Assembly (NCBI GenBank): GCA_041649715.1
Contig: JBAZMP010000002.1
Coordinates: 132,964 to 196,963, forward strand
Direction: 5' to 3'
Source of the DNA: Patescibacteria group bacterium
Lineage (GTDB): Bacteria > Patescibacteriota > Patescibacteriia > JAXHNJ01
DNA: 64,000 bases
Below the pieces are notes generated by a model that searched no databases, was not told where the DNA came from, and saw only the letters and a list, made by a program, of their open reading frames with translations. Both the position numbers and the translations under genes were made by a program. Shown one piece after another: positions 9,931 through 62,501 of the stretch; the stretch's first letter is position 1; each line of letters opens with the position of its first letter.

Positions 9931-11037
9931 TTAAGCCTTAAAAAGATAATGCATCACATCGCCGTCCTGGACAACGTAGTCCCGGCCGACAATTTTCATG
10001 AGGCCCTTTTCCCGGGCGGCCAATTCTGAGCCGGCTTCGTATAATTCCTTCCAGTTGAAGACTTCCGCTTTGATAAAGCCTTTCTCAAAATCAGAATGGA
10101 TGATGCCAGCCGTCTCCGGCGCCAAGGCCCCTTTAACAAAGGTCCAGGCTCGTACCTCGTCTTCGCCGCCCGTCAGAAAAGTCTGGAAATCCAGCATTTC
10201 ATAACCGAGTTTGATCAATTTATTCAAACCTGACTCGGCGAGGCCGAGGTTTTTCAGGAATTCTTTCTTTTCCGATTCGGAAGACAGATCAGCGATTTCC
10301 GATTCCAGCTGGCAGGAGATGACTACGACGGCCGAGCCGTTCTTTTCGGCAATCTCGCGCACTTGTTTGACGAAAAGATTGTCTTCCAGAAAATTTTCAT
10401 CCACATTACAACAGTAAATCTGTTTTTTCAAAGTGATTAAAGCCAGATCAGAGACCATTTTTATTTCTTCTTCGGAAAAGCCAAGGCTTCGGGCGGCAAG
10501 GCCTTTTTTCAGGGCTTCTTCCAGTTTTGTAAGCAAGGCAAGCAAGGGCGTGATCTTTTTCAAGGTTTCTTTATCCGCCGCTTTCAGCTGTTTAGAAAGA
10601 TTATCTTTTCTTTTGCTGACGATTTCCAGGTCGGATAAAGCCAGCTCAACTTCAATGGTTTCGATATCATCGACAGGATTAACGTTGCCAGTGACGTGAA
10701 TTATGTCACTGTTATCAAAACACCGGACCACGTGGCAGATGACTTTGGTCTGGCGGATATTTTCCAAAAATTTATTGCCCAAGCCTTCTCCTTTGGAAGC
10801 GCCCTTGACCAAGCCGGCAATATCCAGGAATTCCACAATAGCGGGCACGATTTTTTTAGGATGATAAAAACTGGCCAATTTCTCCAGCCGTTCATCGGGG
10901 ACGGTAACAATGCCCACATTCGGTTCAATAGTGCAAAAGGGATAATTTTGAATATCCACTGACTGTTGGGTCAGGGCTTTAAATAAAGTGGACTTGCCGA
11001 CATTGGGAAGCCCGACAATTCCTATTGAGAAAGACAA
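9931..11037 (-). CDS. ychF: ribosome-binding ATPase YchF
   Basis: G1 '[18 protein letters not shown]', '[20 protein letters not shown]', C-terminal TGS-like '[11 protein letters not shown]'. Confidence 0.95.
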
Positions 11038-11093
11038 GTGGTTGATTAGTTAATTAATAAGGTGGTTTTGGTTTTTGATTATTGGGTATGGTC

Positions 11094-11600
11094 TCAGATC
11101 TTTATCTCGCAATATGACTGGCTTAGTCTTTTAGCTTTTGAGAGAGAAAGTAATTTTATTATTATTGCGTGTTCAAGTTTCGCCTCTTTTAAAGAAATTT
11201 TCCGGTCAATTGTTTCAAGCTCAATAAATTTTCCCAGGTCTTTTACGATATCCAAGTGTATGCGGGTATTTTTATATAACCATAGATAGCGGACTTTTTT
11301 GATTATGTTTTTGACGCCGAAAGCATCTTTAAAAAGTTTTTTAAGAGATTCAACCTGATTACTTTTTAGATTAATAACCTGTAAATTTGAAATCTTGGGT
11401 TTATCTATGTCCGGCCGCTGATAATATATTAGTTCGAAACAACGATTATTTATTTCTCTGATTTTTAAACGGCCCTTTTGGCAATAATAGTAGGTATCCA
11501 GCTGATTTAACTTTCCCGCATATTTTGCCTTTATTCTTTTAAGTGATATTTTTATTTCGTCAAACTCTCTAAGCTTGAATTTTGACTCGACGTTTTTCAT
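11094..11600 (-). CDS. CYTH-domain protein (class IV adenylate cyclase / triphosphatase-like)
   Basis: N-terminal 'VESKFKL' (ExExK-like) plus alternating beta-strand pattern, ~170 aa. AT-rich gene. Confidence 0.6.
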   Translation of the reverse strand: MKNVESKFKLREFDEIKISLKRIKAKYAGKLNQLDTYYYCQKGRLKIREINNRCFELIYYQRPDIDKPKISNLQVINLKSNQVESLKKLFKDAFGVKNIIKKVRYLWLYKNTRIHLDIVKDLGKFIELETIDRKISLKEAKLEHAIIIKLLSLSKAKRLSQSYCEIKI

Positions 11601-29146: not shown

Positions 29147-29231
29147 TGGTGCCCTGGGGGAGATTTGAACTCCCATCCCGTGAGGGACACGCTCCTGAAG
29201 CGTGCGCGTATGCCAGTTCCGCCACCAGGGC
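29147..29231 (-). tRNA. tRNA-Leu(CAG), CCA encoded
   Basis: Hand fold. Acceptor GCCCTGG/CCAGGGC. D arm GCGG-aactggcata-CGCG. Anticodon arm CACGC-ttCAGga-GCGTG. Long variable arm. T arm GGGAG-ttcaaat-CTCCC. Ends A-CCA. Confidence 0.93.
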
Positions 29232-46359: not shown

Positions 46360-46480
46360 GTGGGCAGAGCGGAGGGTTCGCATATCACCGCAAAGCGGGA
46401 CCCCCCCGCAATGCGGGGTGGGTGGTCTAGTGCGCTTGCTTGTCCCGCAAAGCGGGATGCCGCTCTGCGGCAGAGAGCCG
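46360..46480 (+). other. GC-rich structured segment built from tRNA-Ser 5'-half fragments plus small hairpins
   Basis: 'ggagggttcgcat' (11/13 match to tRNA positions 1-13) and an exact 21-mer 'gtggtctagtgcgcttgcttg' (46422-46442 = 46572-46592). These are separated by hairpins CCGCaaaGCGG, CCCCGCaatGCGGGG and TCCCGCaaaGCGGGA, all closed by GCAGAGCGG/CCGCTCTGC. Confidence 0.6.
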
Positions 46481-46557
46481 GAAAATAAGCATATGTATTC
46501 TGTCTGCATATAAAAGTTATAAAGGCGGTTTGCAATTTAATAAGTAGCGGAAAGAAC

Positions 46558-46644
46558 GGAGAGGTCGCATAGTGGTCTAGTGCGCTTGCTTGGAGAGCAA
46601 GTAGACCTTCACCGGTCTCGCGAGTTCAAATCTCGCCCTCTCCG
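46558..46644 (+). tRNA. tRNA-Ser(GGA), no encoded CCA
   Basis: Acceptor GGAGAGG/CCTCTCC. Anticodon arm CTTGC-ttGGAga-GCAAG. Long variable arm. T arm GCGAG-ttcaaat-CTCGC. Discriminator G. Confidence 0.92.
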
Positions 46645-46761
46645 TTCTTCCCGCTACAATCTTGCCCTCTCCGCCAATTATTTTAAATAAAAAAATCGCA
46701 AAAGTCTTGCATTTTTCTGGCGGGTGTTTGTTAAGATAAATTAAGTCGCAATTTGATTGGT

Positions 46762-50354: not shown

Positions 50355-50819
50355 ATGCGCGACCCGAAGCTTGAAACATCAGGAAAAATAATCGGCTTTT
50401 ATGAAAGGGAGTTTTATTGTTTTTCCAATTTTTCAAGTTTTAAAGTGGAGTGGCAGGGTAAAATCTGGATGACCTCGGAACATGCCTATCAGGCGGCCAG
50501 ATTCTTGAAAACCGCGCCGGCCATCGCGGAAGAGATTTATAAGGCCAGGTCCGCCCACGAAGCGAAAAAGATCATGGAAAGAAACCGGGCCAAAGAGGAG
50601 CCGAACTGGGAGACCAAGAAGGTTGGCGTGATGGAAGAAATATGCTCTAATAAACTCAAGCAGAACCCTTATATCCAAAAGAAGCTGCGGGAAACCGGAA
50701 CAAAAGATATTGTGGAGGATTCGCCGGTGGATGGTTTCTGGGGCTGGGGTCCTGATCGCAAAGGCAGAAATGAACTTGGGAAGATTTGGATGAGATTAAG
50801 AGAGAAACTGTCACCCTGA
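50355..50819 (+). CDS. NADAR (YbiA/DUF1768) family protein
   Basis: 'FYEREFYCFSNFS...WMTSEHAYQAARF', 'DGFWGWG'. The last four codons and the stop lie in the repeat core. Confidence 0.8.
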   Translation: MRDPKLETSGKIIGFYEREFYCFSNFSSFKVEWQGKIWMTSEHAYQAARFLKTAPAIAEEIYKARSAHEAKKIMERNRAKEEPNWETKKVGVMEEICSNKLKQNPYIQKKLRETGTKDIVEDSPVDGFWGWGPDRKGRNELGKIWMRLREKLSP

Positions 50820-50942
50820 GGTGCGGAGCCTCGAAGGGTGACGCCTGAAAAAAGGCACATTGTCTATGCTTCGAGACGCCCGCCGGGCTCCTCAGCATGA
50901 CAATGTGGGCTAGCCTTTTGAGCCCGTGGTTTGGGGGGCGAC
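50808..50942. repeat. palindromic repeat element with 34-nt core TGTCACCCTGAGGTGCGGAGCCTCGAAGGGTGAC (core 50809-50842)
   Basis: Core identical at 50809, 51905 and 52560. The second half ends '...ctcctcagcatgacaat'. Confidence 0.85.
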
Positions 50943-51027
50943 GGAGATATCAAGATATTGTCCGCCCAAGGCGGATCCGCCTCTGGCGGAAGATGTCGAG
51001 AACTAGTTAAGTAAAAGGCTTACATTT

Positions 51028-55722: not shown

Positions 55723-56910
55723 ATGTCCAGGCAGGCAAAAAAGAAGAATAAATCAAAAAAATCTTTTAATAAAAAAAAGGCCGCTAAACCAAGAAAGACG
55801 CCGAAAGAGAAGTATCTAAAGGCGGATTTTCCCCGGGAAAAAATCGAAGATTTGATCAATAAGGGCCGTTCGCGCGGTTTTATCACCGAGACGGAGGTTC
55901 TTTATGTTTTGCCGGATTTAGAGGATTATTTGTTGGAATACGAGCAATTGATGGATAAATTTGAAAATCTCGGCATTGTCATCGTGGAATCGCCGACCTC
56001 TATTTTAGCGACAAAAAAAGAAAAGGAAGAATACCAGGAAAAATTCGGGCACGGGAAGGACGCCCGCCGTTTTGACCTGGGCGACATTTCCGATGATTCC
56101 ATCCAGATGTATTTAAGGGAAATCGGCAAAGTCCATCTTTTAAAGACGGAAGAAGAGGTCAGTCTGGCCAAAAGGAAGGAAAAGGGGGACATGGAAGCGC
56201 AAAAAAAACTCGTGGAAGCGAATTTGCGTTTAGTGGTGTCCATCGCCAAAAAATTTACCGGCCGTTCATTGTCCCTGTTGGATTTGATTCAGGAGGGCAA
56301 TATCGGTTTATTCCGGGCCGTGGAAAAATTTGATTATCGCAAGGGCTATAAATTTTCCACTTATGCCACCTGGTGGATCAGGCAGGCGATCACCCGGGCG
56401 CTGGCCGATCAATCCCGCACCATCCGTATTCCCGTTCATATGGTGGAGACGATAAATCGTTTCCAGCAGGTGGAAAGACAATTGATTCAGGATCTGGGCC
56501 GCGAGCCCCTGCCGGAAGAGATTGCCGCCGAAATGGGCGAACCGGTGGAAAAAATCCGCCACATCATCAATATTTCCCAGGATACTGTCTCTTTGGAAAC
56601 CTCGGTGGGCGACGAAGAAGAAGATTCCACTTTGGGTGACTTTATCGAAGACGTAAAAACCATCACGCCGGACCGGGTGGCCGCTTTACAACTCCTGAAG
56701 GATCACGTAAAAGATATTATCAAGGAATTGACCCCCCGCGAGCAGAAGATATTGGAAATGCGTTTTGGATTGCTTGACGGCGTGGCCCATACCTTGGAGG
56801 AAGTAGGCAAGGAATTCGGGGTGACTCGCGAAAGGATCCGCCAGATCGAGGCCAAGGCTTTGGAGAGAATCCAGGAACATCACGGGATGAGAAAGCTGAA
56901 GGATTACTAA
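55723..56910 (+). CDS. rpoD: RNA polymerase sigma factor RpoD
   Basis: Region 2 '[39 protein letters not shown]'. Region 4 '[24 protein letters not shown]'. Confidence 0.96.
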
Positions 56911-56927
56911 TAATTAGTACCCAAAGC

Positions 56928-56999
56928 TCCGCGATAGCTCAATGGTAGAGCAACCGGCTGTTAACCGGTAGGTTGTCGGTCCGAATCCGACTCGCGGAG
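56928..56999 (+). tRNA. tRNA-Asn(GTT)-like gene with non-canonical T-loop (TCCGAAT)
   Basis: TCCGCGA ta GCTC aatggta GAGC a ACCGG ctGTTaa CCGGT aggtt GTCGG tccgaat CCGAC TCGCGGA g. Position 55 is C instead of the near-universal U. Flanked by TACCCAAAGC / GCTTTGGGTA. Confidence 0.7.
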
Positions 57000-57020
57000 C
57001 TTTGGGTATTTTATTTATTT

Positions 57021-57222
57021 ATGGTATCCCTGGTTGCCGCTGCAACCGGGACCCCGGCGCGAAGCGCCAGGGGGAGCAGCCGGCTGTTAACCGGTAGAGT
57101 CTGTCCTGAGTGGCAACGAAGGATTGTCGGTCCTGCGCCCGAGGCGCACCCGCCTTGGGCGGGGAATCCGACTCGCCCCGTACCAAAGCGCTTGCGCTTT
57201 GGTACGGGGCTCGCGGAGCTGG
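57021..57222 (+). pseudogene. second tRNA-Asn-like copy broken into four blocks by GC-rich hairpin insertions
   Basis: Blocks 57074-57097 (23/24 match to copy 1), 57124-57133, 57164-57176 and 57210-57220. They are separated by inserts of 26, 30 and 33 nt. The 5' part is replaced by hairpins. Confidence 0.55.
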
Positions 57223-57254
57223 CGAGATTATTTTTTTGTCGTCTAGCCAGAATT

Positions 57255-57290
57255 AAAAAGCCCCTTTTAGCAAAAGGGGCCTAGTTTTTG
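57255..57290. terminator. bidirectional terminator
   Basis: AAAAAGCCCCTTTT-agc-AAAAGGGGCCTAGTTTTT. Confidence 0.7.
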
Positions 57291-57295
57291 GGGGA

Positions 57296-57622
57296 TTATG
57301 CTCCCAATATCTGATGACGAGGCAAGAGCTTTTTCAGGAGAGCAGGCGTCGCATTTTCCAGCTGGAAAGCCTGGCGGAAAGGTTTCGCAATCTTGGGGTG
57401 AAAAAGGCTCAAGACTTCTTCCAGACTGCCTTCTCTTCGGGTTCCCCCGTGCTCGGGATCTTGAGCGATGGCCACGAAAGATTTTTCTTGCCGGGTGATG
57501 GAGATGGTAAGGCAAGGTTCCAGATTCCAGAGGGTATATTCCTCGATTTCGACCACTTGGCCGTTTATTACCTGGATGGTATCCGGTGGCAGTTTTGCCC
57601 TATCGGCTAATCCTGGTTCCAT
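57296..57622 (-). CDS. hypothetical protein
   Basis: Strong RBS 'GAGAGGAGGAAAT' before the ATG on the minus strand. The overlapping plus-strand ORFs lack one. Confidence 0.6.
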   Translation of the reverse strand: MEPGLADRAKLPPDTIQVINGQVVEIEEYTLWNLEPCLTISITRQEKSFVAIAQDPEHGGTRREGSLEEVLSLFHPKIAKPFRQAFQLENATPALLKKLLPRHQILGA

Positions 57623-57706
57623 ATTTCCTCCTCTCGAGTTTGGGCGGAAAGAACGAATTTATAAGGTATCTAGATGTTATTAAAATAAGATACATTTGTC
57701 AATATC

Positions 57707-57736
57707 TTGACAAATGCGGCTCATTTGCTCTAAGAT
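57707..57736 (+). promoter_or_regulatory. promoter TTGACA-N18-TAAGAT
   Basis: TTGACA 57707-57712, TAAGAT 57731-57736. Confidence 0.55.
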
Positions 57737-57746
57737 GTAATTACTT

Positions 57747-57803
57747 ATGAAACTTGCGAAGCAAAATCTGAATAACAATAATAACCGTCTTTTGGCCGGG
57801 TGA
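57747..57803 (+). CDS. candidate 18-codon leader ORF MKLAKQNLNNNNNRLLAG (six Asn codons)
   Basis: ATG about 4-10 nt after the predicted TSS, with no SD. Codons AAT CTG AAT AAC AAT AAT AAC. The 3' end GGCCGGG is complementary to the terminator 5' arm. Confidence 0.35.
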   Translation: MKLAKQNLNNNNNRLLAG

Positions 57804-57832
57804 GTTTCATTTAATTTGTAATTATGAGGAAA

Positions 57833-57857
57833 CCCGGCCAAATGAGCCGGTTTTTTT
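57833..57857 (+). terminator. intrinsic terminator (attenuator candidate)
   Basis: CCGGC-caaatga-GCCGG followed by TTTTTTT. CCCGGCC (57833-57839) can alternatively pair with GGCCGGG (57794-57800). Confidence 0.75.
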
Positions 57858-57867
57858 GTTTATAGCC

Positions 57868-58148
57868 GGGCGCCGCGCTCAGGGGTAGTTGAGCTGGTAC
57901 CCCGCATAACTCACTGTGTTCGTATGCGGGGCAGGCAACGCCGGTAATATATTTTAATGATTATTCCAGCTCTCCTGTAGTTTAATTGGTAAAACGCTGC
58001 ACTGTTAATGCAGAGATTGGAGGTTCGAGTCCTCCTGGGAGAGCTGGGATAATCATTGTAGCACTGCTTGTCCCGTAGGAACAGAAAGCGACTTACGGGA
58101 TTAATGCGGAGACCGCTGGTTCGAATCCAGCCCCCTGAGCGCGGCGCC
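57868..58148 (+). pseudogene. degenerate tRNA(Asn-like) gene interrupted by hairpins and by a complete nested tRNA-Asn cassette
   Basis: 18-bp closing helix GGGCGCCGCGCTCAGGGG / CCCCTGAGCGCGGCGCC. 5' block 'tcaggggtagttgagctggta'. 3' blocks 'gcactg' + 'ttaatgcggagacc GCTGG ttcgaat CCAGC cccctga g'. Hairpins at 57900-57931 and 58071-58100. Confidence 0.55.
57971..58043 (+). tRNA. tRNA-Asn(GTT), canonical
   Basis: TCTCCTG ta GTTT aattggta AAAC g CTGCA ctGTTaa TGCAG agatt GGAGG ttcgagt CCTCC TGGGAGA g. Closely resembles E. coli tRNA-Asn. Flanked by GATTATTCCAGC / GCTGGGATAATC. Confidence 0.93.
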
Positions 58149-58294
58149 AGTGTTTCGTCTGTCCGTCGAAACCCTGAAAGGGTGAAGGCGGAAGCCCACC
58201 TGGAGGAGCCAAATATTATTTAAATATTTGGTAGAAAAGAAAAACGCCCCACGAAGCGACAATTGTTTTGTGCTTTGTCGGGCGTGTACTGAGA

Positions 58295-58510
58295 TCAGGC
58301 TTGTGCCTTCCCCTTTCTTTTTTCTTTGTATTCGTCGAGGTTTTCGGCGAGAAATACCCACTTTTCTTCGCCTGTATTTATGATGCCCCCAGATTCTTTG
58401 CGATAAACCGCTTTACAGGCCTTGCATGCTTTTACTCTTCCGAATCCTCCGCAACCGCCGCTTTCGAGATGTTCCCAATCACTTTTTCCACACTTTGGGC
58501 AAAATTCCAT
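58295..58510 (-). CDS. small zinc-ribbon protein
   Basis: RBS 'GAAGGGAGGG'. 'CPKCG...CKACKAVY'. Confidence 0.6.
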   Translation of the reverse strand: MEFCPKCGKSDWEHLESGGCGGFGRVKACKACKAVYRKESGGIINTGEEKWVFLAENLDEYKEKRKGKAQA

Positions 58511-58629
58511 GATTTACCCTCCCTTCAATTAGTTACAGTTAGGTGAATTCCATATCTAATGTACAGTTAATATGTAAATTTATTATATCTACATTAATTT
58601 GTCAAGTTCCCGCAGCTCGGCGCCTTTAG

Positions 58630-58658
58630 TTGACAAGTCTTATTAACCAAATTAAAAT
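58630..58658 (+). promoter_or_regulatory. promoter TTGACA-N17-TAAAAT
   Basis: TTGACA 58630-58635, TAAAAT 58653-58658. Confidence 0.6.
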
Positions 58659-58698
58659 AGTTAATCAAGATAAGCCTTTTTTATTCAAAGGAGTGGTC

Positions 58699-58935
58699 AT
58701 GTCAAAAAAGAAAAATAGGGGAAGTCTCCAAAAGCTTGGCGGTACGATCGGCAGCCGGAAACACGGGAAAAGCGGCCATGTTCATAATGAACAGCATTTT
58801 ACAGGCACGAAGGCCGGGAAAAGGCAGCGCCGAAACCGGAGAAAGAGCAAAAAGGGAAGCGAGGCTTTTTCTCTCACGCGCAAGGAAAGGCACGCCAAGA
58901 GAAGAACGCACGTGAACAAATACCGGACAAATTAA
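58699..58935 (+). CDS. small, extremely basic protein
   Basis: RBS 'AAAGGAGTGG'. 78 aa rich in K/R/H. Terminator at 58942-58972. Confidence 0.55.
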   Translation: MSKKKNRGSLQKLGGTIGSRKHGKSGHVHNEQHFTGTKAGKRQRRNRRKSKKGSEAFSLTRKERHAKRRTHVNKYRTN

Positions 58936-58941
58936 TTCCGG

Positions 58942-58972
58942 ACCGCTGGCTCTTGCCGTCAGCGGTTTTTTC
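58942..58972 (+). terminator. intrinsic terminator
   Basis: ACCGCTG-gctcttgccgt-CAGCGGT followed by TTTTTT. Confidence 0.7.
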
Positions 58973-59000
58973 TTATTCAGAAATATGTTAGAATAATTAT

Positions 59001-59462
59001 ATGGACCCAAACGCCATTAATTTTTTAAGAGATTCGCTGGCTCACCACCATAATTTGAGGAATTCTTTGGACGGCAAAGCCTCTTTTTTATTGGCCATTG
59101 CCGGGGTGGTTTTCGGCTTAAGCGTTATCAGACTGGAAAAAGTCCAGTTTGTGGTGATTGCCATTACCGCTTTTCTGACCATTCTTTTGACGGTCTTCGC
59201 CGTCTTTCTGCCTTACCGCGGGAAAATGAAAGAGAAAATCGGCCTGATGTGCTGGTGGGGTTTCGCCGGAAAAAGTTATGAAAGCTACCAGGAAGAAGTT
59301 AATCGAGTTATTAAAACTGACGAAGCGATTGCCGACGAATATAAGAAGGAGATCTGGAATCTGGCCAATTATTCTCTAAGACCGAAGTCAGTCTTGCTGA
59401 AATGGGCGAGTTTCGTTCTGACGGTCGGGCTTTTGGCCGGGTTTGTTCTGTTTTTCGTTTAA
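59001..59462 (+). CDS. 3-TM protein, DUF5706 / Pycsar-effector (PycTM)-like
   Basis: 'HHHNLRNSLDGKASFLLAIAGVVFGL' followed by a second TM and a C-terminal TM. The pattern was recalled from memory and was not searched. Confidence 0.45.
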   Translation: MDPNAINFLRDSLAHHHNLRNSLDGKASFLLAIAGVVFGLSVIRLEKVQFVVIAITAFLTILLTVFAVFLPYRGKMKEKIGLMCWWGFAGKSYESYQEEVNRVIKTDEAIADEYKKEIWNLANYSLRPKSVLLKWASFVLTVGLLAGFVLFFV

Positions 59463-59612
59463 ATAATAGAATCAAAATAGCCGAATTTTAGGGCTATTTT
59501 TTTGTTTGACTAAAAATCATTCTTATGGTAAGAAACATTAACGCCCTTTGACAGTTTTATAATTTTTCAAGTCACAAAACACAGAAATCTTCAAGAAAAC
59601 AAGGAGGTGGAG

Positions 59613-62501
59613 ATGGAAGAGAATCATGGTTTTAACCTGGAAACGCCCCTGGCTGTGACCCCTGATGATATTAAGAGCATTTCTGATCCATCTCCGCGTT
59701 TTCGGAGCTGGGCCTGGCAAATGTATCTTCGCCGCGAGCTTAACCTGATCGTGGAGGCGGTCATCTGGTTGGGCAAAGCGGCCAATATCATCGAAGCCCT
59801 TGCTTATCTTAACCGTCTGACGGTTGAGTATCCGGAAACCGAGCTGAAGGTCGTGGTCAAGGATCTGGAGAATATCCGAGATCCCGGCCCGAAAATGGTG
59901 AAGCTAAGAACCCTCGTGAGAGGGATCAGAGCCAAAGCGAAGGATCCGCAGCTCACGCGCGGCGCCTTGACGCATCAGGCGGTCAATGACCTTTTTAGCG
60001 GTCGGCTGATGTCTTCCGGCGGGAGAAGAACCGACAAGACTTCTTCTCAGCTTGAATTGTTCAAGCTTGAGAAAAGCCGTCAGATTCTTCTTTTTGATGA
60101 ATTCGCCGAGGAGTCAGTTCAAAGCGAAAAATCGGAAAAAATGCGTCTGAGCCGCACCCGAGTGCTTAATCGGATTCAGCATCACTGGAAAGTGATAAGG
60201 TCGGCCATCGAAAAGCAGGGTTGGCCGGCCTGGCGACGGAAAAGGCGAAACGTCAATTGTCTGGAAAAATGGCTGGCGATTCTTTTCGGCGAACACGCCG
60301 TTAAGCTTGGCGCCGAAGTAGGCTTCGGCGAACACTTTAAGGTGTTGACCGAGCTGACTTGGGCCGCCGCCGCGAGCTATTGGCTGAGAGAAAGACAAAG
60401 GCCGATGATTTTGTTCCGGGAGATAAACGTGATTGCCTCGCGTCATCACCTTGGCGGCGGACGCATTGACGCTCTTGAGGTGCGTCGCATCGGCGGAAAG
60501 TTGCCGAATCGGAGGCAAGACCGGATACTTACCGAAATGAGCCGTAACCGCTATAAATCCGTCGGCCATCTGATCATGGAGCTTGGCAAACGCTTTGACC
60601 AGCCGGTTGAAGTGACGGTCATCGACTGGAAATCTTTGGTCGGCGACGTGGTCACCGGGGATAAAGAATGGTCTTCGACGGATTTAAAAAAAGAACCCCA
60701 ATTCGCCGATCAGGAACAGATGAAGAGGTATCTGACGCTGATCCCTCTGGATTGCTACTTGGTCGGTCAAAAAGGTGAGCTTTGGCGACCCGAAGACGTG
60801 ACTCTGCGCGGGGAACTCTGGTATTTGATGCCTGACCAGGCGCCCATTGTTCATGAAGTGAGCATGGCCGTCGAGCAAATGCAGGATTATTTTTTGAATT
60901 ACGTCGTGCTTGAGTGGCCCGAAGCTTCCCGGCGGGCTTTGGCCAGGGAAGTCAATAACATTTTCCTTCGCCATCTGGTCGAGATCCATGAAAAAGGGGA
61001 AAGTCGCCCGAAGAAAGGAGCTTTCGGCAATAATCATAACGGGAATCAGGCTCTGCCACTTTTCCCGGAAGAAAAAGTAAAAGTCGTGTCCGTCCGGGAG
61101 ATAATCCGAGCGCATCGGGATAAATATCCGCTCTTTGCCGACCGCCGGCAGATTCTCCAGATTGTGGGCAAGCGCCGCAAGACAGGGACCCATAAATTGG
61201 AGATGAATTACAGCAAGCTGCTAGAGGCCATGGCAAAAGGGGAGGTAAAAACCTACAGTTGGTCGGATCCCGCCCAGCCTTTTACCGTGCAGTGCCTGAT
61301 GGACGATCACCGGGATTCTGACCCTTCCATGCGTATTTATCCCGACTGGTTACGTTTCTGGTGTTTCGGTTGCCGCACGGGCGGAAGCATTGCCATTGAA
61401 TCCGTGCCGGGCGACCTCGCCAATCGACTGGCGCCAAAATGGCAGGAAATCAGCCGCCAGCCCACTAAGCTTGACTGGTCGGTCTTGCCGGTTATTCCCG
61501 AAGAACATGACCGGATTATGCGCCGCGCCCAGCAGTTGCTGGCCTTATCTTTTTGGCCTAGTCCGGCGGTGGAATATCTGCGTCAAGAAAGGAGAGTAGA
61601 TCCTTCCCTGGCTTATGAATACGGCGCGGGTTACGGCAATAACAGCTTGATCATCGGGTTGATGAGTGAAGGTTATTGCTTAGATGATCTGATCCGCTAC
61701 GGATTCGTAAAAATCACGCCTAATTTCTGGCGGGCCAGCAGTCTGATCGGATTGTTGCAGGAAGAGTTCGGTCTTTCCGCTCAGGAAATCACGCGCGAGT
61801 ACTTATCTAAGAAGACTCAGCGGACGGAAATTGGTTATCCCTATTCAGTTCTGGCTGGCCGCGTGACTTTCCCTTTGAAGCTTGAAGGCAAACACACCAA
61901 TTTCTATGGCCGGATAATTCCGCCTACAGAGGAGATGCTGACGCACATCAAGCTTTCGATGCTGGGCGAAAAAGTCGTCCAGGGCGGCTTCAATACCGAC
62001 ATTCTTTTGTCAGACGCTAAGGAGGTGAAATTTGCCGAAGCGGTCATTGATACTCTGACCTTAGCCCAGATGGGTTATCGGAACGTGATCGCTTTGGTCG
62101 GCACCGAGAATGTCGAGATTCTCAAAGCGGCGATCCGGGCCCGCAAGAATATTGGCTTGTCCCTTGATTACGACAAGTTCGGCCGGAAGCTGACCCTGAG
62201 GACGATCAGGCGTTATTTGGCCACGGTGAATTTGGGCGGCGAAAAAGTCTGGCGGGAAATTGATCAGTATGTCCGCGAGATTGAAGAAGCGATCAAGAGG
62301 GAGGAAACGGGAGAAAAAGAAGCTCTTCATTTCGGGGAATATTTCCGCCGGCTGGGTTACCTGGGGATTGAGGATTTCACCGCTAGATTCGTGGCTGACC
62401 ATCGGGAATGTCTTGGTCGTGAATTTGATTTCAACACCTGGTGGCAGAGATTCGGTTGTCAAAACGCACCTTTATCTTGGGAGGAAGACAATAACGCGTA
62501 G
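59613..62501 (+). CDS. fusion protein: RecB-family PD-(D/E)XK nuclease-like N-terminal half + CHC2 zinc finger + Toprim primase-like C-terminal half
   Basis: RBS 'AAGGAGGTGGAG'. 'GGGRIDALEV', 'VTVIDWKSL', 'EQMKRYLTL' (D / DxK / QxxxY). 'CLMDDHRDSDPSMRIYPDWLRFWCFGCRTGGSIAIE' (CHC2). 'FAEAVIDTLTLAQMGYRNVIALVGT' and 'LSLDYDKFG' (Toprim E, DxD). Confidence 0.75.
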   Translation: MEENHGFNLETPLAVTPDDIKSISDPSPRFRSWAWQMYLRRELNLIVEAVIWLGKAANIIEALAYLNRLTVEYPETELKVVVKDLENIRDPGPKMVKLRTLVRGIRAKAKDPQLTRGALTHQAVNDLFSGRLMSSGGRRTDKTSSQLELFKLEKSRQILLFDEFAEESVQSEKSEKMRLSRTRVLNRIQHHWKVIRSAIEKQGWPAWRRKRRNVNCLEKWLAILFGEHAVKLGAEVGFGEHFKVLTELTWAAAASYWLRERQRPMILFREINVIASRHHLGGGRIDALEVRRIGGKLPNRRQDRILTEMSRNRYKSVGHLIMELGKRFDQPVEVTVIDWKSLVGDVVTGDKEWSSTDLKKEPQFADQEQMKRYLTLIPLDCYLVGQKGELWRPEDVTLRGELWYLMPDQAPIVHEVSMAVEQMQDYFLNYVVLEWPEASRRALAREVNNIFLRHLVEIHEKGESRPKKGAFGNNHNGNQALPLFPEEKVKVVSVREIIRAHRDKYPLFADRRQILQIVGKRRKTGTHKLEMNYSKLLEAMAKGEVKTYSWSDPAQPFTVQCLMDDHRDSDPSMRIYPDWLRFWCFGCRTGGSIAIESVPGDLANRLAPKWQEISRQPTKLDWSVLPVIPEEHDRIMRRAQQLLALSFWPSPAVEYLRQERRVDPSLAYEYGAGYGNNSLIIGLMSEGYCLDDLIRYGFVKITPNFWRASSLIGLLQEEFGLSAQEITREYLSKKTQRTEIGYPYSVLAGRVTFPLKLEGKHTNFYGRIIPPTEEMLTHIKLSMLGEKVVQGGFNTDILLSDAKEVKFAEAVIDTLTLAQMGYRNVIALVGTENVEILKAAIRARKNIGLSLDYDKFGRKLTLRTIRRYLATVNLGGEKVWREIDQYVREIEEAIKREETGEKEALHFGEYFRRLGYLGIEDFTARFVADHRECLGREFDFNTWWQRFGCQNAPLSWEEDNNA

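Follow-up and report, generated by a model that had tools for sequence, protein, structure and literature searches.

A tRNA-Asn gene split by three insertions, one of them holding an intact tRNA-Asn, in a Patescibacteria genome: apparently one case of a wider pattern of selfish DNA in tRNA genes

A stretch of 64,000 nucleotides from a Patescibacteria group bacterium (assembly GCA_041649715.1, contig JBAZMP010000002.1, positions 132,964 to 196,963 of the forward strand), hereafter the window, carries two loci with transfer RNA (tRNA) genes for asparagine. Locus 1 comprises a type-1 tRNA-Asn gene and a downstream remnant, while locus 2 is a 281-nt unit in which an outer tRNA-Asn gene encloses an inner one. 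Positions given below are those of the window, and features lie on the plus strand unless stated otherwise. A repeat search showed that locus 2 is closed by a perfect 17-nt inverted repeat, GGCGCCGCGCTCAGGGG (57869-57885) facing CCCCTGAGCGCGGCGCC (58132-58148). The resulting helix is made of the 7-bp acceptor stem of the outer gene and 10 leader/trailer pairs, C(-1):G73 among them, with the leader strand GGCGCCGCGC at 57869-57878 and the trailer strand CGCGGCGCC at 58140-58148. A preliminary description, made from the DNA letters alone, had given this closing helix as perfect and 18 bp long; it is perfect, but its length is 17 bp, as G57868 faces A58149. The same description had pointed to tRNA-like ends around a long insert, and the outer pieces are indeed tRNA-Asn sequence.

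From 5' to 3', the outer gene reads TCAGGGG TA GTTG AGCTGGTA (tRNA positions 1-21, 57879-57899), CAAC G CCG (positions 22-29, 57936-57943), CA CTG (positions 30-34, 58062-58066) and TTAA TGCGG AGACC GCTGG TTCGAAT CCAGC CCCCTGA G (positions 35-73, 58101-58139). It has no contiguous cloverleaf and neither ARAGORN nor Rfam detected it as it stands. When 57900-57935, 57944-58061 and 58067-58100 were removed in silico, the spliced sequence ran TCAGGGG...CCCCTGAG, and ARAGORN drew a canonical tRNA-Asn(gtt) of 73/74 nt in which 21 of the 21 cloverleaf stem pairs were canonical. The outer gene had been taken for a degenerate one; it is instead a complete tRNA-Asn(GUU), because the second and third pieces, CAACGCCG and CACTG, supply the 3' strand of the D stem and the 5' strand of the anticodon stem. 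In the alignment of the window with its orthologs, MAFFT paired the 3' half of the orthologs with the inner and not with the outer gene, and the insertion boundaries were therefore set by hand and checked with ARAGORN.

Three insertions, and not the single one first proposed, interrupt the outer gene: 36 nt in the D loop (21/22), 118 nt in the anticodon stem (29/30, a boundary uncertain by 1 nt) and 34 nt in the anticodon loop (34/35). The first (57900-57935) consists of a 9-bp hairpin at 57900-57931, present just as described earlier, followed by CAGG. The third (58067-58100) parts G34 from T35, again as described, and holds the hairpin cttgtcccgtagg...cttacggga. The second (57944-58061) is AT-rich and contains the inner tRNA-Asn(GUU) (57971-58043), presumed to be the functional copy at locus 2. 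Its identification as a canonical tRNA-Asn(GTT) was upheld by a score of 69.5 bits against Rfam RF00005 (gathering score 29), by an ARAGORN call of tRNA-Asn(gtt) at 57971-58044 and by stem pairs that are all canonical. This inner tRNA is held by a 15-bp leader/trailer clamp of its own (leader 57956-57970, trailer 58044-58057), and an inverted-repeat search delimited the whole as 20-nt arms, 57956-57975 and 58038-58057, which are 95% complementary. The 296-nt region was predicted to fold with -140.6 kcal/mol (z = -8.4), a value that none of 200 shuffled sequences reached.

Upstream of this unit lie a sigma-70-like promoter (TTGACA, 18 nt, TAAGAT; 57707-57736) and a leader of about 120 nt with a terminator-like hairpin and T run at its end (57834-57850), the whole spanning 57707-57862. 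The leader of this type-2 tRNA-Asn reads AATAATAACCG...GGCCGGGTGAGTTT...CCCGGCC...GCCGGTTTTTTT and, together with the promoter, is conserved 5' of type-2 tRNA-Asn genes in four related loci (L082, L089, L011 and L091; L numbers designate related sequences throughout). It looks like an attenuator or riboswitch ahead of a tRNA gene; folding of the leader alignment yielded a 6-pair terminator-like helix alone, with weak covariation, and the leader had no Rfam match.

The preliminary description had suggested that relatives be searched for an uninterrupted outer gene. The relatives found with DnaG were metagenome-assembled Patescibacteria in which the gene order dnaG-rpoD-tRNA-Asn is conserved, and closer ones were collected through homologs of RpoD. 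In L082, whose RpoD is 94% identical, a tRNA-Asn without interruption stands after the orthologous promoter and leader, with GGGCGCCGAGC before it and GCTCGGCGCC behind it; L082 thus retains a leader/trailer helix of the locus-2 kind, GGCGCCGAGC/GCTCGGCGCC. In L089 (RpoD 83% identical), the same leader precedes an uninterrupted gene that matches the spliced outer sequence at 62 of 73 positions. The site is thus uninterrupted in L082 and L089, and the 118-nt insertion is missing from both. Since both share the promoter and leader in front of an uninterrupted tRNA-Asn, the outer unit, judged by this comparison, is a resident second ("type-2") tRNA-Asn(GUU) gene that was interrupted in the lineage of the window. 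These orthologs support the earlier proposal of a tRNA-in-hairpin cassette that entered an older tRNA-Asn gene. Between the outer and the inner gene only 51 of 73 positions are identical, yet both form perfect cloverleaves, which is easier to reconcile with an imported, foreign copy than with local duplication. The inner gene may also have functionally replaced the outer one, as had been proposed, but this idea is weakened by a third tRNA-Asn(GUU), at 56928-57000, that already covers the codon.

The above findings raised the matter of how often such arrangements occur, which was addressed in 86 non-redundant sequences, the window and related loci, with a fragment defined as an exact copy of at least 11 nt located no more than 600 nt from the tRNA. 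Such a fragment of itself accompanied 47 of the 123 tRNAs, where about 2 would be expected by chance. The fragments were ordered: upstream ones were 5' parts rather than 3' parts in a ratio of 30:1, and downstream ones were 3' parts rather than 5' parts in a ratio of 40:9 (Fisher p = 7e-13). In several loci the pieces around an intact gene are exactly complementary, with the break at 29/30 in L050 and at 20/21 in L017. In L012 a type-1 gene is interrupted at the same three positions as the outer gene of the window, and the insertion at 29/30 is again AT-rich and again holds an inner tRNA. L091 contains, on its reverse strand at about 10600-11160, a three-layer nest of type-2 tRNA-Asn with mirrored 5' and 3' pieces and matching acceptor strands, as well as extra 3' fragments; its outer layers are richer in hairpins than its inner ones. 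When metagenomes were scanned with 40 nt of the inner tRNA, three contigs were obtained, and in 3 of 3 the tRNA was the innermost member of a nest; the inner tRNA pattern had no match in viral contigs. The architecture also occurs in complete chromosomes (L006, CP181398.1; L071, OZ246404.1).

The innermost copy was intact in every nest examined except L030, and incomplete outer copies occur in L004, L010, the locus-1 remnant and a tRNA-Ser fragment. At positions 5911-6287 of L030, a 5' fragment and a "full" tRNA-Asn flank a GIY-YIG gene, and in both of them TCCGCCGCGGCGGA stands where the 5' anticodon stem and CTG would be. The "full" copy has a hairpin in its anticodon arm and was called tRNA-Stop(tta) by ARAGORN; no normal tRNA-Asn was found on the 8-kb L030 contig. 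In the 86 sequences no element bearing an integrase was seen between outer and inner copies. Full-text literature searches gave no account of tRNA genes in nests, or of GIY-YIG cassettes within the tRNA genes of Patescibacteria, which is not proof of novelty.

A nuclease gene is associated with these nests. Using tblastn, we found 17 GIY-YIG open reading frames (ORFs) in 1.35 Mb, and 13 or 14 of them lay within 300 nt of a tRNA gene, all in the same orientation as the tRNA. Sequence that close to a tRNA makes up a few percent of the survey, so that about one GIY-YIG gene would be expected there by chance. Most of these genes sit exactly between a displaced 5' piece and an intact tRNA-Asn, tRNA-Ser or tRNA-Pro. 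In L050, an 81-residue GIY-YIG ORF lies directly 5' of the inner tRNA-Asn, with both inside the outer tRNA-Asn, and an endonuclease gene was found in or beside an interrupted tRNA in L006, L008, L030, L031, L037, L044, L050, L054, L056, L071 and L084. The two ORFs compared with Pfam both matched PF01541 (E = 2.5e-13 for L050 and 4e-16). The proteins have about 80 residues and the catalytic domain only, and they are weakly similar to endonucleases of group I introns and to UPF0213. No viral relatives of the GIY-YIG protein were found. A phage origin was also considered through a 16-nt junction motif and rejected: the motif had 36 viral matches, which we treated as chance because none was in a tRNA context.

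The hairpins inserted into the outer gene are themselves recurrent. That of insertion 1 belongs to a family ending in ...GCGGGGCA(A/G)G, and hairpins of its type occupy the D loop of displaced copies in L005, L012, L017, L035, L082 and L091. Displaced copies in L005, L017, L075 and L091 contain relatives of the insertion-3 hairpin, located at 34/35 or in the variable or T loop. Among displaced copies, the anticodon loop (34/35-35/36) and other loops are repeated sites of the hairpin families, which have conserved stems and variable loop sequences. They are 5 to 8 times enriched near tRNA genes and are found elsewhere too, and they are not known to be accompanied by a transposase. Within the window, twin hairpins of the form TCCGCC-NNN-GGCGGA lie in frame inside a protein-coding gene (478-510) and also in an intergenic cluster at 50810-50990; this cluster had no Rfam match and no tRNA context.

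At locus 1, the type-1 tRNA-Asn(GUU) (56928-57000; Rfam, ARAGORN and repeat search) lies directly 3' of rpoD; it has a T-rich tail and is extended by a 10-bp leader/trailer helix of its own. Here and at the tRNA-Ser gene, leader/trailer helices lengthen the acceptor stem and a T-rich tract follows (window 56918-57016; L002 13056-13165), and each such tRNA thus lies within a terminator-like hairpin. The sequence of the helix differs wholly between the window (ACCCAAAGC/GCTTTGGGT) and L002 (CCCCGCCCGC/GCGGGCGGGG), whereas its pairing is kept. Directly after the intact gene comes a displaced copy of the 3' two-thirds of type-1 tRNA-Asn (57022-57219), whose segments equal the type-1 tRNA apart from one substitution and include no 5' part. 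Six hairpins are lodged in its acceptor strand and in its D, variable and T loops; one is a perfect 16-bp palindrome (57177-57210) with a copy of the 5-nt CTCGC on each side. This remnant is about 92% identical to that of L002, compared with 57-62% at fourfold-degenerate sites, and one hairpin shows a compensatory change between the two; by these comparisons its conservation indicates either constraint or recent spread. L082, which is as close as L002, has a different outer architecture. A small protein encoded in the remnant was considered and rejected, the 103-residue ORF at 56973-57284 being broken by an indel in L002.

A further interrupted locus in the window involves tRNA-Ser(GGA). A displaced 5' part of this gene, with hairpins, twin hairpins at 34/35 and a collapsed GIY-YIG frame, spans 46370-46544; the tRNA copy itself covers 46370-46478, and the intact tRNA-Ser(GGA) follows at 46557-46645. 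The collapsed frame (46493-46544) starts MYSVCI* and ends KSYKGGLQFNK*, which match the termini of the intact proteins of L031 and L006. Intact versions of the cassette are present in L006, L031 and L084, the last being a close relative, and the tRNA-Ser locus of the window represents a decay stage, a collapsed nuclease cassette. At 19 nt 3' of the intact gene there is a 10-nt copy of the tRNA-Ser 3' end (46664-46676). Window and L006 share 95% identity at the tRNA-Ser junction but only 50% in DnaG, a difference that fits horizontal spread. Elsewhere in the window, ARAGORN called a tRNA-Leu(CAG) on the minus strand (29147-29231) that Rfam did not list at gathering thresholds. Locus 2 is followed at 58295-62501 by a 71-residue ORF and by the genes of two proteins, one with a transmembrane domain of the Pycsar-effector type, the other a Toprim/zinc-ribbon protein of 964 residues. 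These genes differ from those of L082, where an A2M-like gene follows, and the segment may be a variable island beside the tRNA.

Locus 2 is probably a resident type-2 tRNA-Asn gene split by three insertions and, as such, one instance of widespread selfish cassettes that target tRNA genes and carry a replacement tRNA. According to this model, a cassette would enter a tRNA gene and bring with it a replacement tRNA or tRNA part, leaving the two displaced pieces of the old gene on its flanks, the 5' piece upstream and the 3' piece downstream. Repeated invasion of whichever copy is currently intact would produce nested layers with the newest intact copy innermost. The autonomous form of the cassette would encode the GIY-YIG nuclease of about 80 residues, co-oriented and just 5' of the tRNA. 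By analogy with free-standing homing endonucleases, this nuclease may cut the intact target, after which repair would copy the cassette in; cleavage, homing and immunity are thus putative activities, just as the nature of the hairpins and the choice of the expressed copy are predictions of the model. Locus 2 itself would be either a derivative that has no nuclease gene or a cassette from which that gene has been lost.

Several points weigh against this model. Neither locus 2 with its immediate flanks nor the rest of the 64-kb window yielded an intact nuclease gene with tblastn. The link between nuclease and nesting is correlative, and the protein lacks a DNA-binding domain and has no known cleavage site. 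In most loci that have a nuclease gene, duplication is limited to the 5' part of the tRNA and does not extend to the whole; whole-tRNA nests like locus 2 may arise somewhat differently. A restored inner tRNA should itself be a target of the nuclease. Disabling substitutions are absent from the outer pieces. In the comparison with L002, conservation of the locus-1 remnant far exceeds that of neutral sites, which could mean that the remnants have a function. Finally, the leader/trailer helices are not terminal repeats of the transposon type, because their sequences differ between loci.

As an alternative, the outer gene might still be in use, either with the insertions removed like introns to give a second mature tRNA-Asn or with the composite RNA acting as a scaffold that clamps, protects or terminates the inner precursor. 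Its flawless pieces with all their canonical pairs and the perfect 17-bp closing helix agree with such use, as do the recurrence of the insertion positions (D loop, 29/30 and 34/35) in distant genomes, the hairpin stems that are kept or compensated while loops vary, and the identity of the locus-1 remnant to L002. Moreover, self-splicing introns are documented in Patescibacteria tRNA-Asn at 35/36 (PMC13011429). Yet a group I intron (RF00028) had no match at E up to 10 in 56800-58400, and neither the window nor eight nested loci gave a group I or group II signal. An intron of the Patescibacteria group I type was rejected as it requires insertion after U35 (site 35/36) and about 200 nt or more, and insertions of 34-118 nt at 21/22, 29/30 and 34/35 are too small for self-splicing. 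Splicing of the archaeal type was likewise rejected: by inspection, none of the three junctions has the bulge-helix-bulge, that is, paired 3-nt bulges with a 4-bp helix between them. Many outer copies elsewhere are incomplete, as listed above for L004, L010, the locus-1 remnant and the tRNA-Ser fragment, whereas the innermost copy is kept intact in all nests examined but L030. We regard continued use of the outer gene as quite unlikely, but retain it because of the undamaged outer pieces, the conservation of the remnant, the unexplained hairpins and the duplications that are mostly of 5' parts only. Local segmental duplication or rearrangement with no mobile cassette, by replication slippage or nuclease-stimulated amplification and with unrelated, repeat-like palindromes colonising the dead copies later, would account for the identity, in most loci, of the outer pieces with the inner tRNA of their own genome. 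It would also suit the plain tandem tRNA copies of L019 and L018 and the hairpins located away from tRNAs, including the one in the protein gene at 478-510; furthermore, phage T4/T6 SegB is reported to drive segmental amplification of a tRNA region (PMC13096335). This explanation seems unlikely all the same. The low identity of the two perfect cloverleaves at locus 2 fits foreign import better, neither the strict placing of 5' pieces on the upstream side and 3' pieces on the downstream side nor the exactly complementary breaks (29/30 in the window and L050, 20/21 in L017) are predicted by random duplication and deletion, and the junctions are near-identical between very distant genomes.

tRNA genes are classic targets of integration, in which a 3' fragment is displaced. 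The partial copies might be attachment-site duplications of integrase islands or prophages that have since been deleted, in line with this preference for tRNA genes and with the genes 3' of locus 2, which differ from L082 and include a Pycsar-type effector domain. tRNA gene fragments are discussed in PMC9897764. But the fragments surveyed here are separated from the intact gene by 20-600 nt that contain no integrase, and 5' fragments upstream are as common as 3' fragments downstream. At locus 2, the 118-nt insert contains a whole tRNA and no ORF, and the outer 5' and 3' halves around it are exactly complementary, which an integrase crossover does not yield; we thus rejected this origin as very improbable. 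Hardly credible, in turn, is a known structured RNA with tRNA-like ends, such as transfer-messenger RNA (tmRNA) or a Y RNA-like molecule, or an artefact of metagenome assembly, even though tRNA-like ends do flank a long insert and the source is a metagenome contig. Rfam 15, applied to the whole window at gathering thresholds and to 56800-58400 at E up to 10, returned only tRNA matches. For tmRNA, which has tRNA-Ala-like ends with G3:U70 and a tag ORF, there was neither an ARAGORN call nor an Rfam match, the acceptor stem being TCAGGGG/CCCCTGA, and its rejection in the preliminary description was upheld; a Y-like RNA failed on the tested features. An artefact is at odds with the same architecture in many independent assemblies, including the complete chromosomes of L006 and L071, and with a second contig that has the same RpoD and mostly the same neighbouring genes.

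Taken with the survey, locus 2 belongs to a wider pattern that is apparently undescribed and probably reflects selfish DNA of the homing-endonuclease type in tRNA genes. A bolder proposal is tenable, though we offer it tentatively: Patescibacteria might harbour an undescribed class of selfish element that "heals what it breaks". Such elements would bring a replacement tRNA or part of one, in their autonomous form express a GIY-YIG nuclease from the captured tRNA promoter, and build up Russian-doll nests that record their own history, with the hairpins as miniature derivatives or cut-site scars and the 281-nt unit as a two-layer fossil. If true, this would be a third strategy for living in an essential RNA gene, besides self-splicing introns and integrase elements that rebuild the 3' end, and a nuclease of some 80 residues with the ability to recognise tRNA genes would merit characterisation as a tool lead. 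tRNA finders detect only the innermost gene, while displaced copies, collapsed nucleases and hairpins fill odd intergenic regions of genomes of about 1 Mb, where they can be mistaken for new non-coding RNAs. Because nests preserve the order of invasion, the turnover and horizontal spread of the elements can be dated from sequence.

The nearest published parallel is provided by group I introns that interrupt tRNA-Asn and tRNA-Asp of Patescibacteria at 35/36 (Nakagawa et al. 2026, PMC13011429) and that share with locus 2 the phylum, the tRNA and almost the same site in the anticodon loop. In our survey, tRNA-Asn genes with group I introns at 35/36 were found in L006, L008, L037, L087, L040, L059 and L062. 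An intron-bearing tRNA-Asn directly follows an intron-less copy in L087 (6218-6650), and the introns of L040, L059 and L062 contain, by eye, an apparent HNH-type ORF. At locus 2, in contrast, rescue would come from a second gene copy and not from splicing, with no group I signal. Archaeal multi-intron, split and permuted tRNAs resemble locus 2 in having several non-canonical interruptions and long leader/trailer helices that hold the pieces; the genome of the window is, however, bacterial (sigma-70, DnaG), there is no bulge-helix-bulge, and one insertion is a whole tRNA. With integrative elements, the nests have in common a partial copy beside an intact gene and mobile DNA that repairs the gene it interrupts, but they differ in their scale of tens to hundreds of bases, in having no integrase and in their nested 5' and 3' fragments. 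In "fractured genes" (Dassa et al. 2009, PMC2677866), a free-standing homing endonuclease gene likewise lies between the two halves of a host gene; function is restored there at the protein level by split inteins, here by a duplicate tRNA. SegB, a GIY-YIG nuclease of phages T4/T6, is reported to promote preferential inheritance and segmental amplification of the tRNA region (PMC2330249, PMC13096335), and there too the nuclease gene is embedded among tRNA genes. The Patescibacteria gene, by comparison, lies inside a split chromosomal tRNA gene and encodes about 80 residues with the catalytic domain only, its cleavage being putative and locus 2 carrying no nuclease gene, and the element restores the gene that it broke with a copy of its own.

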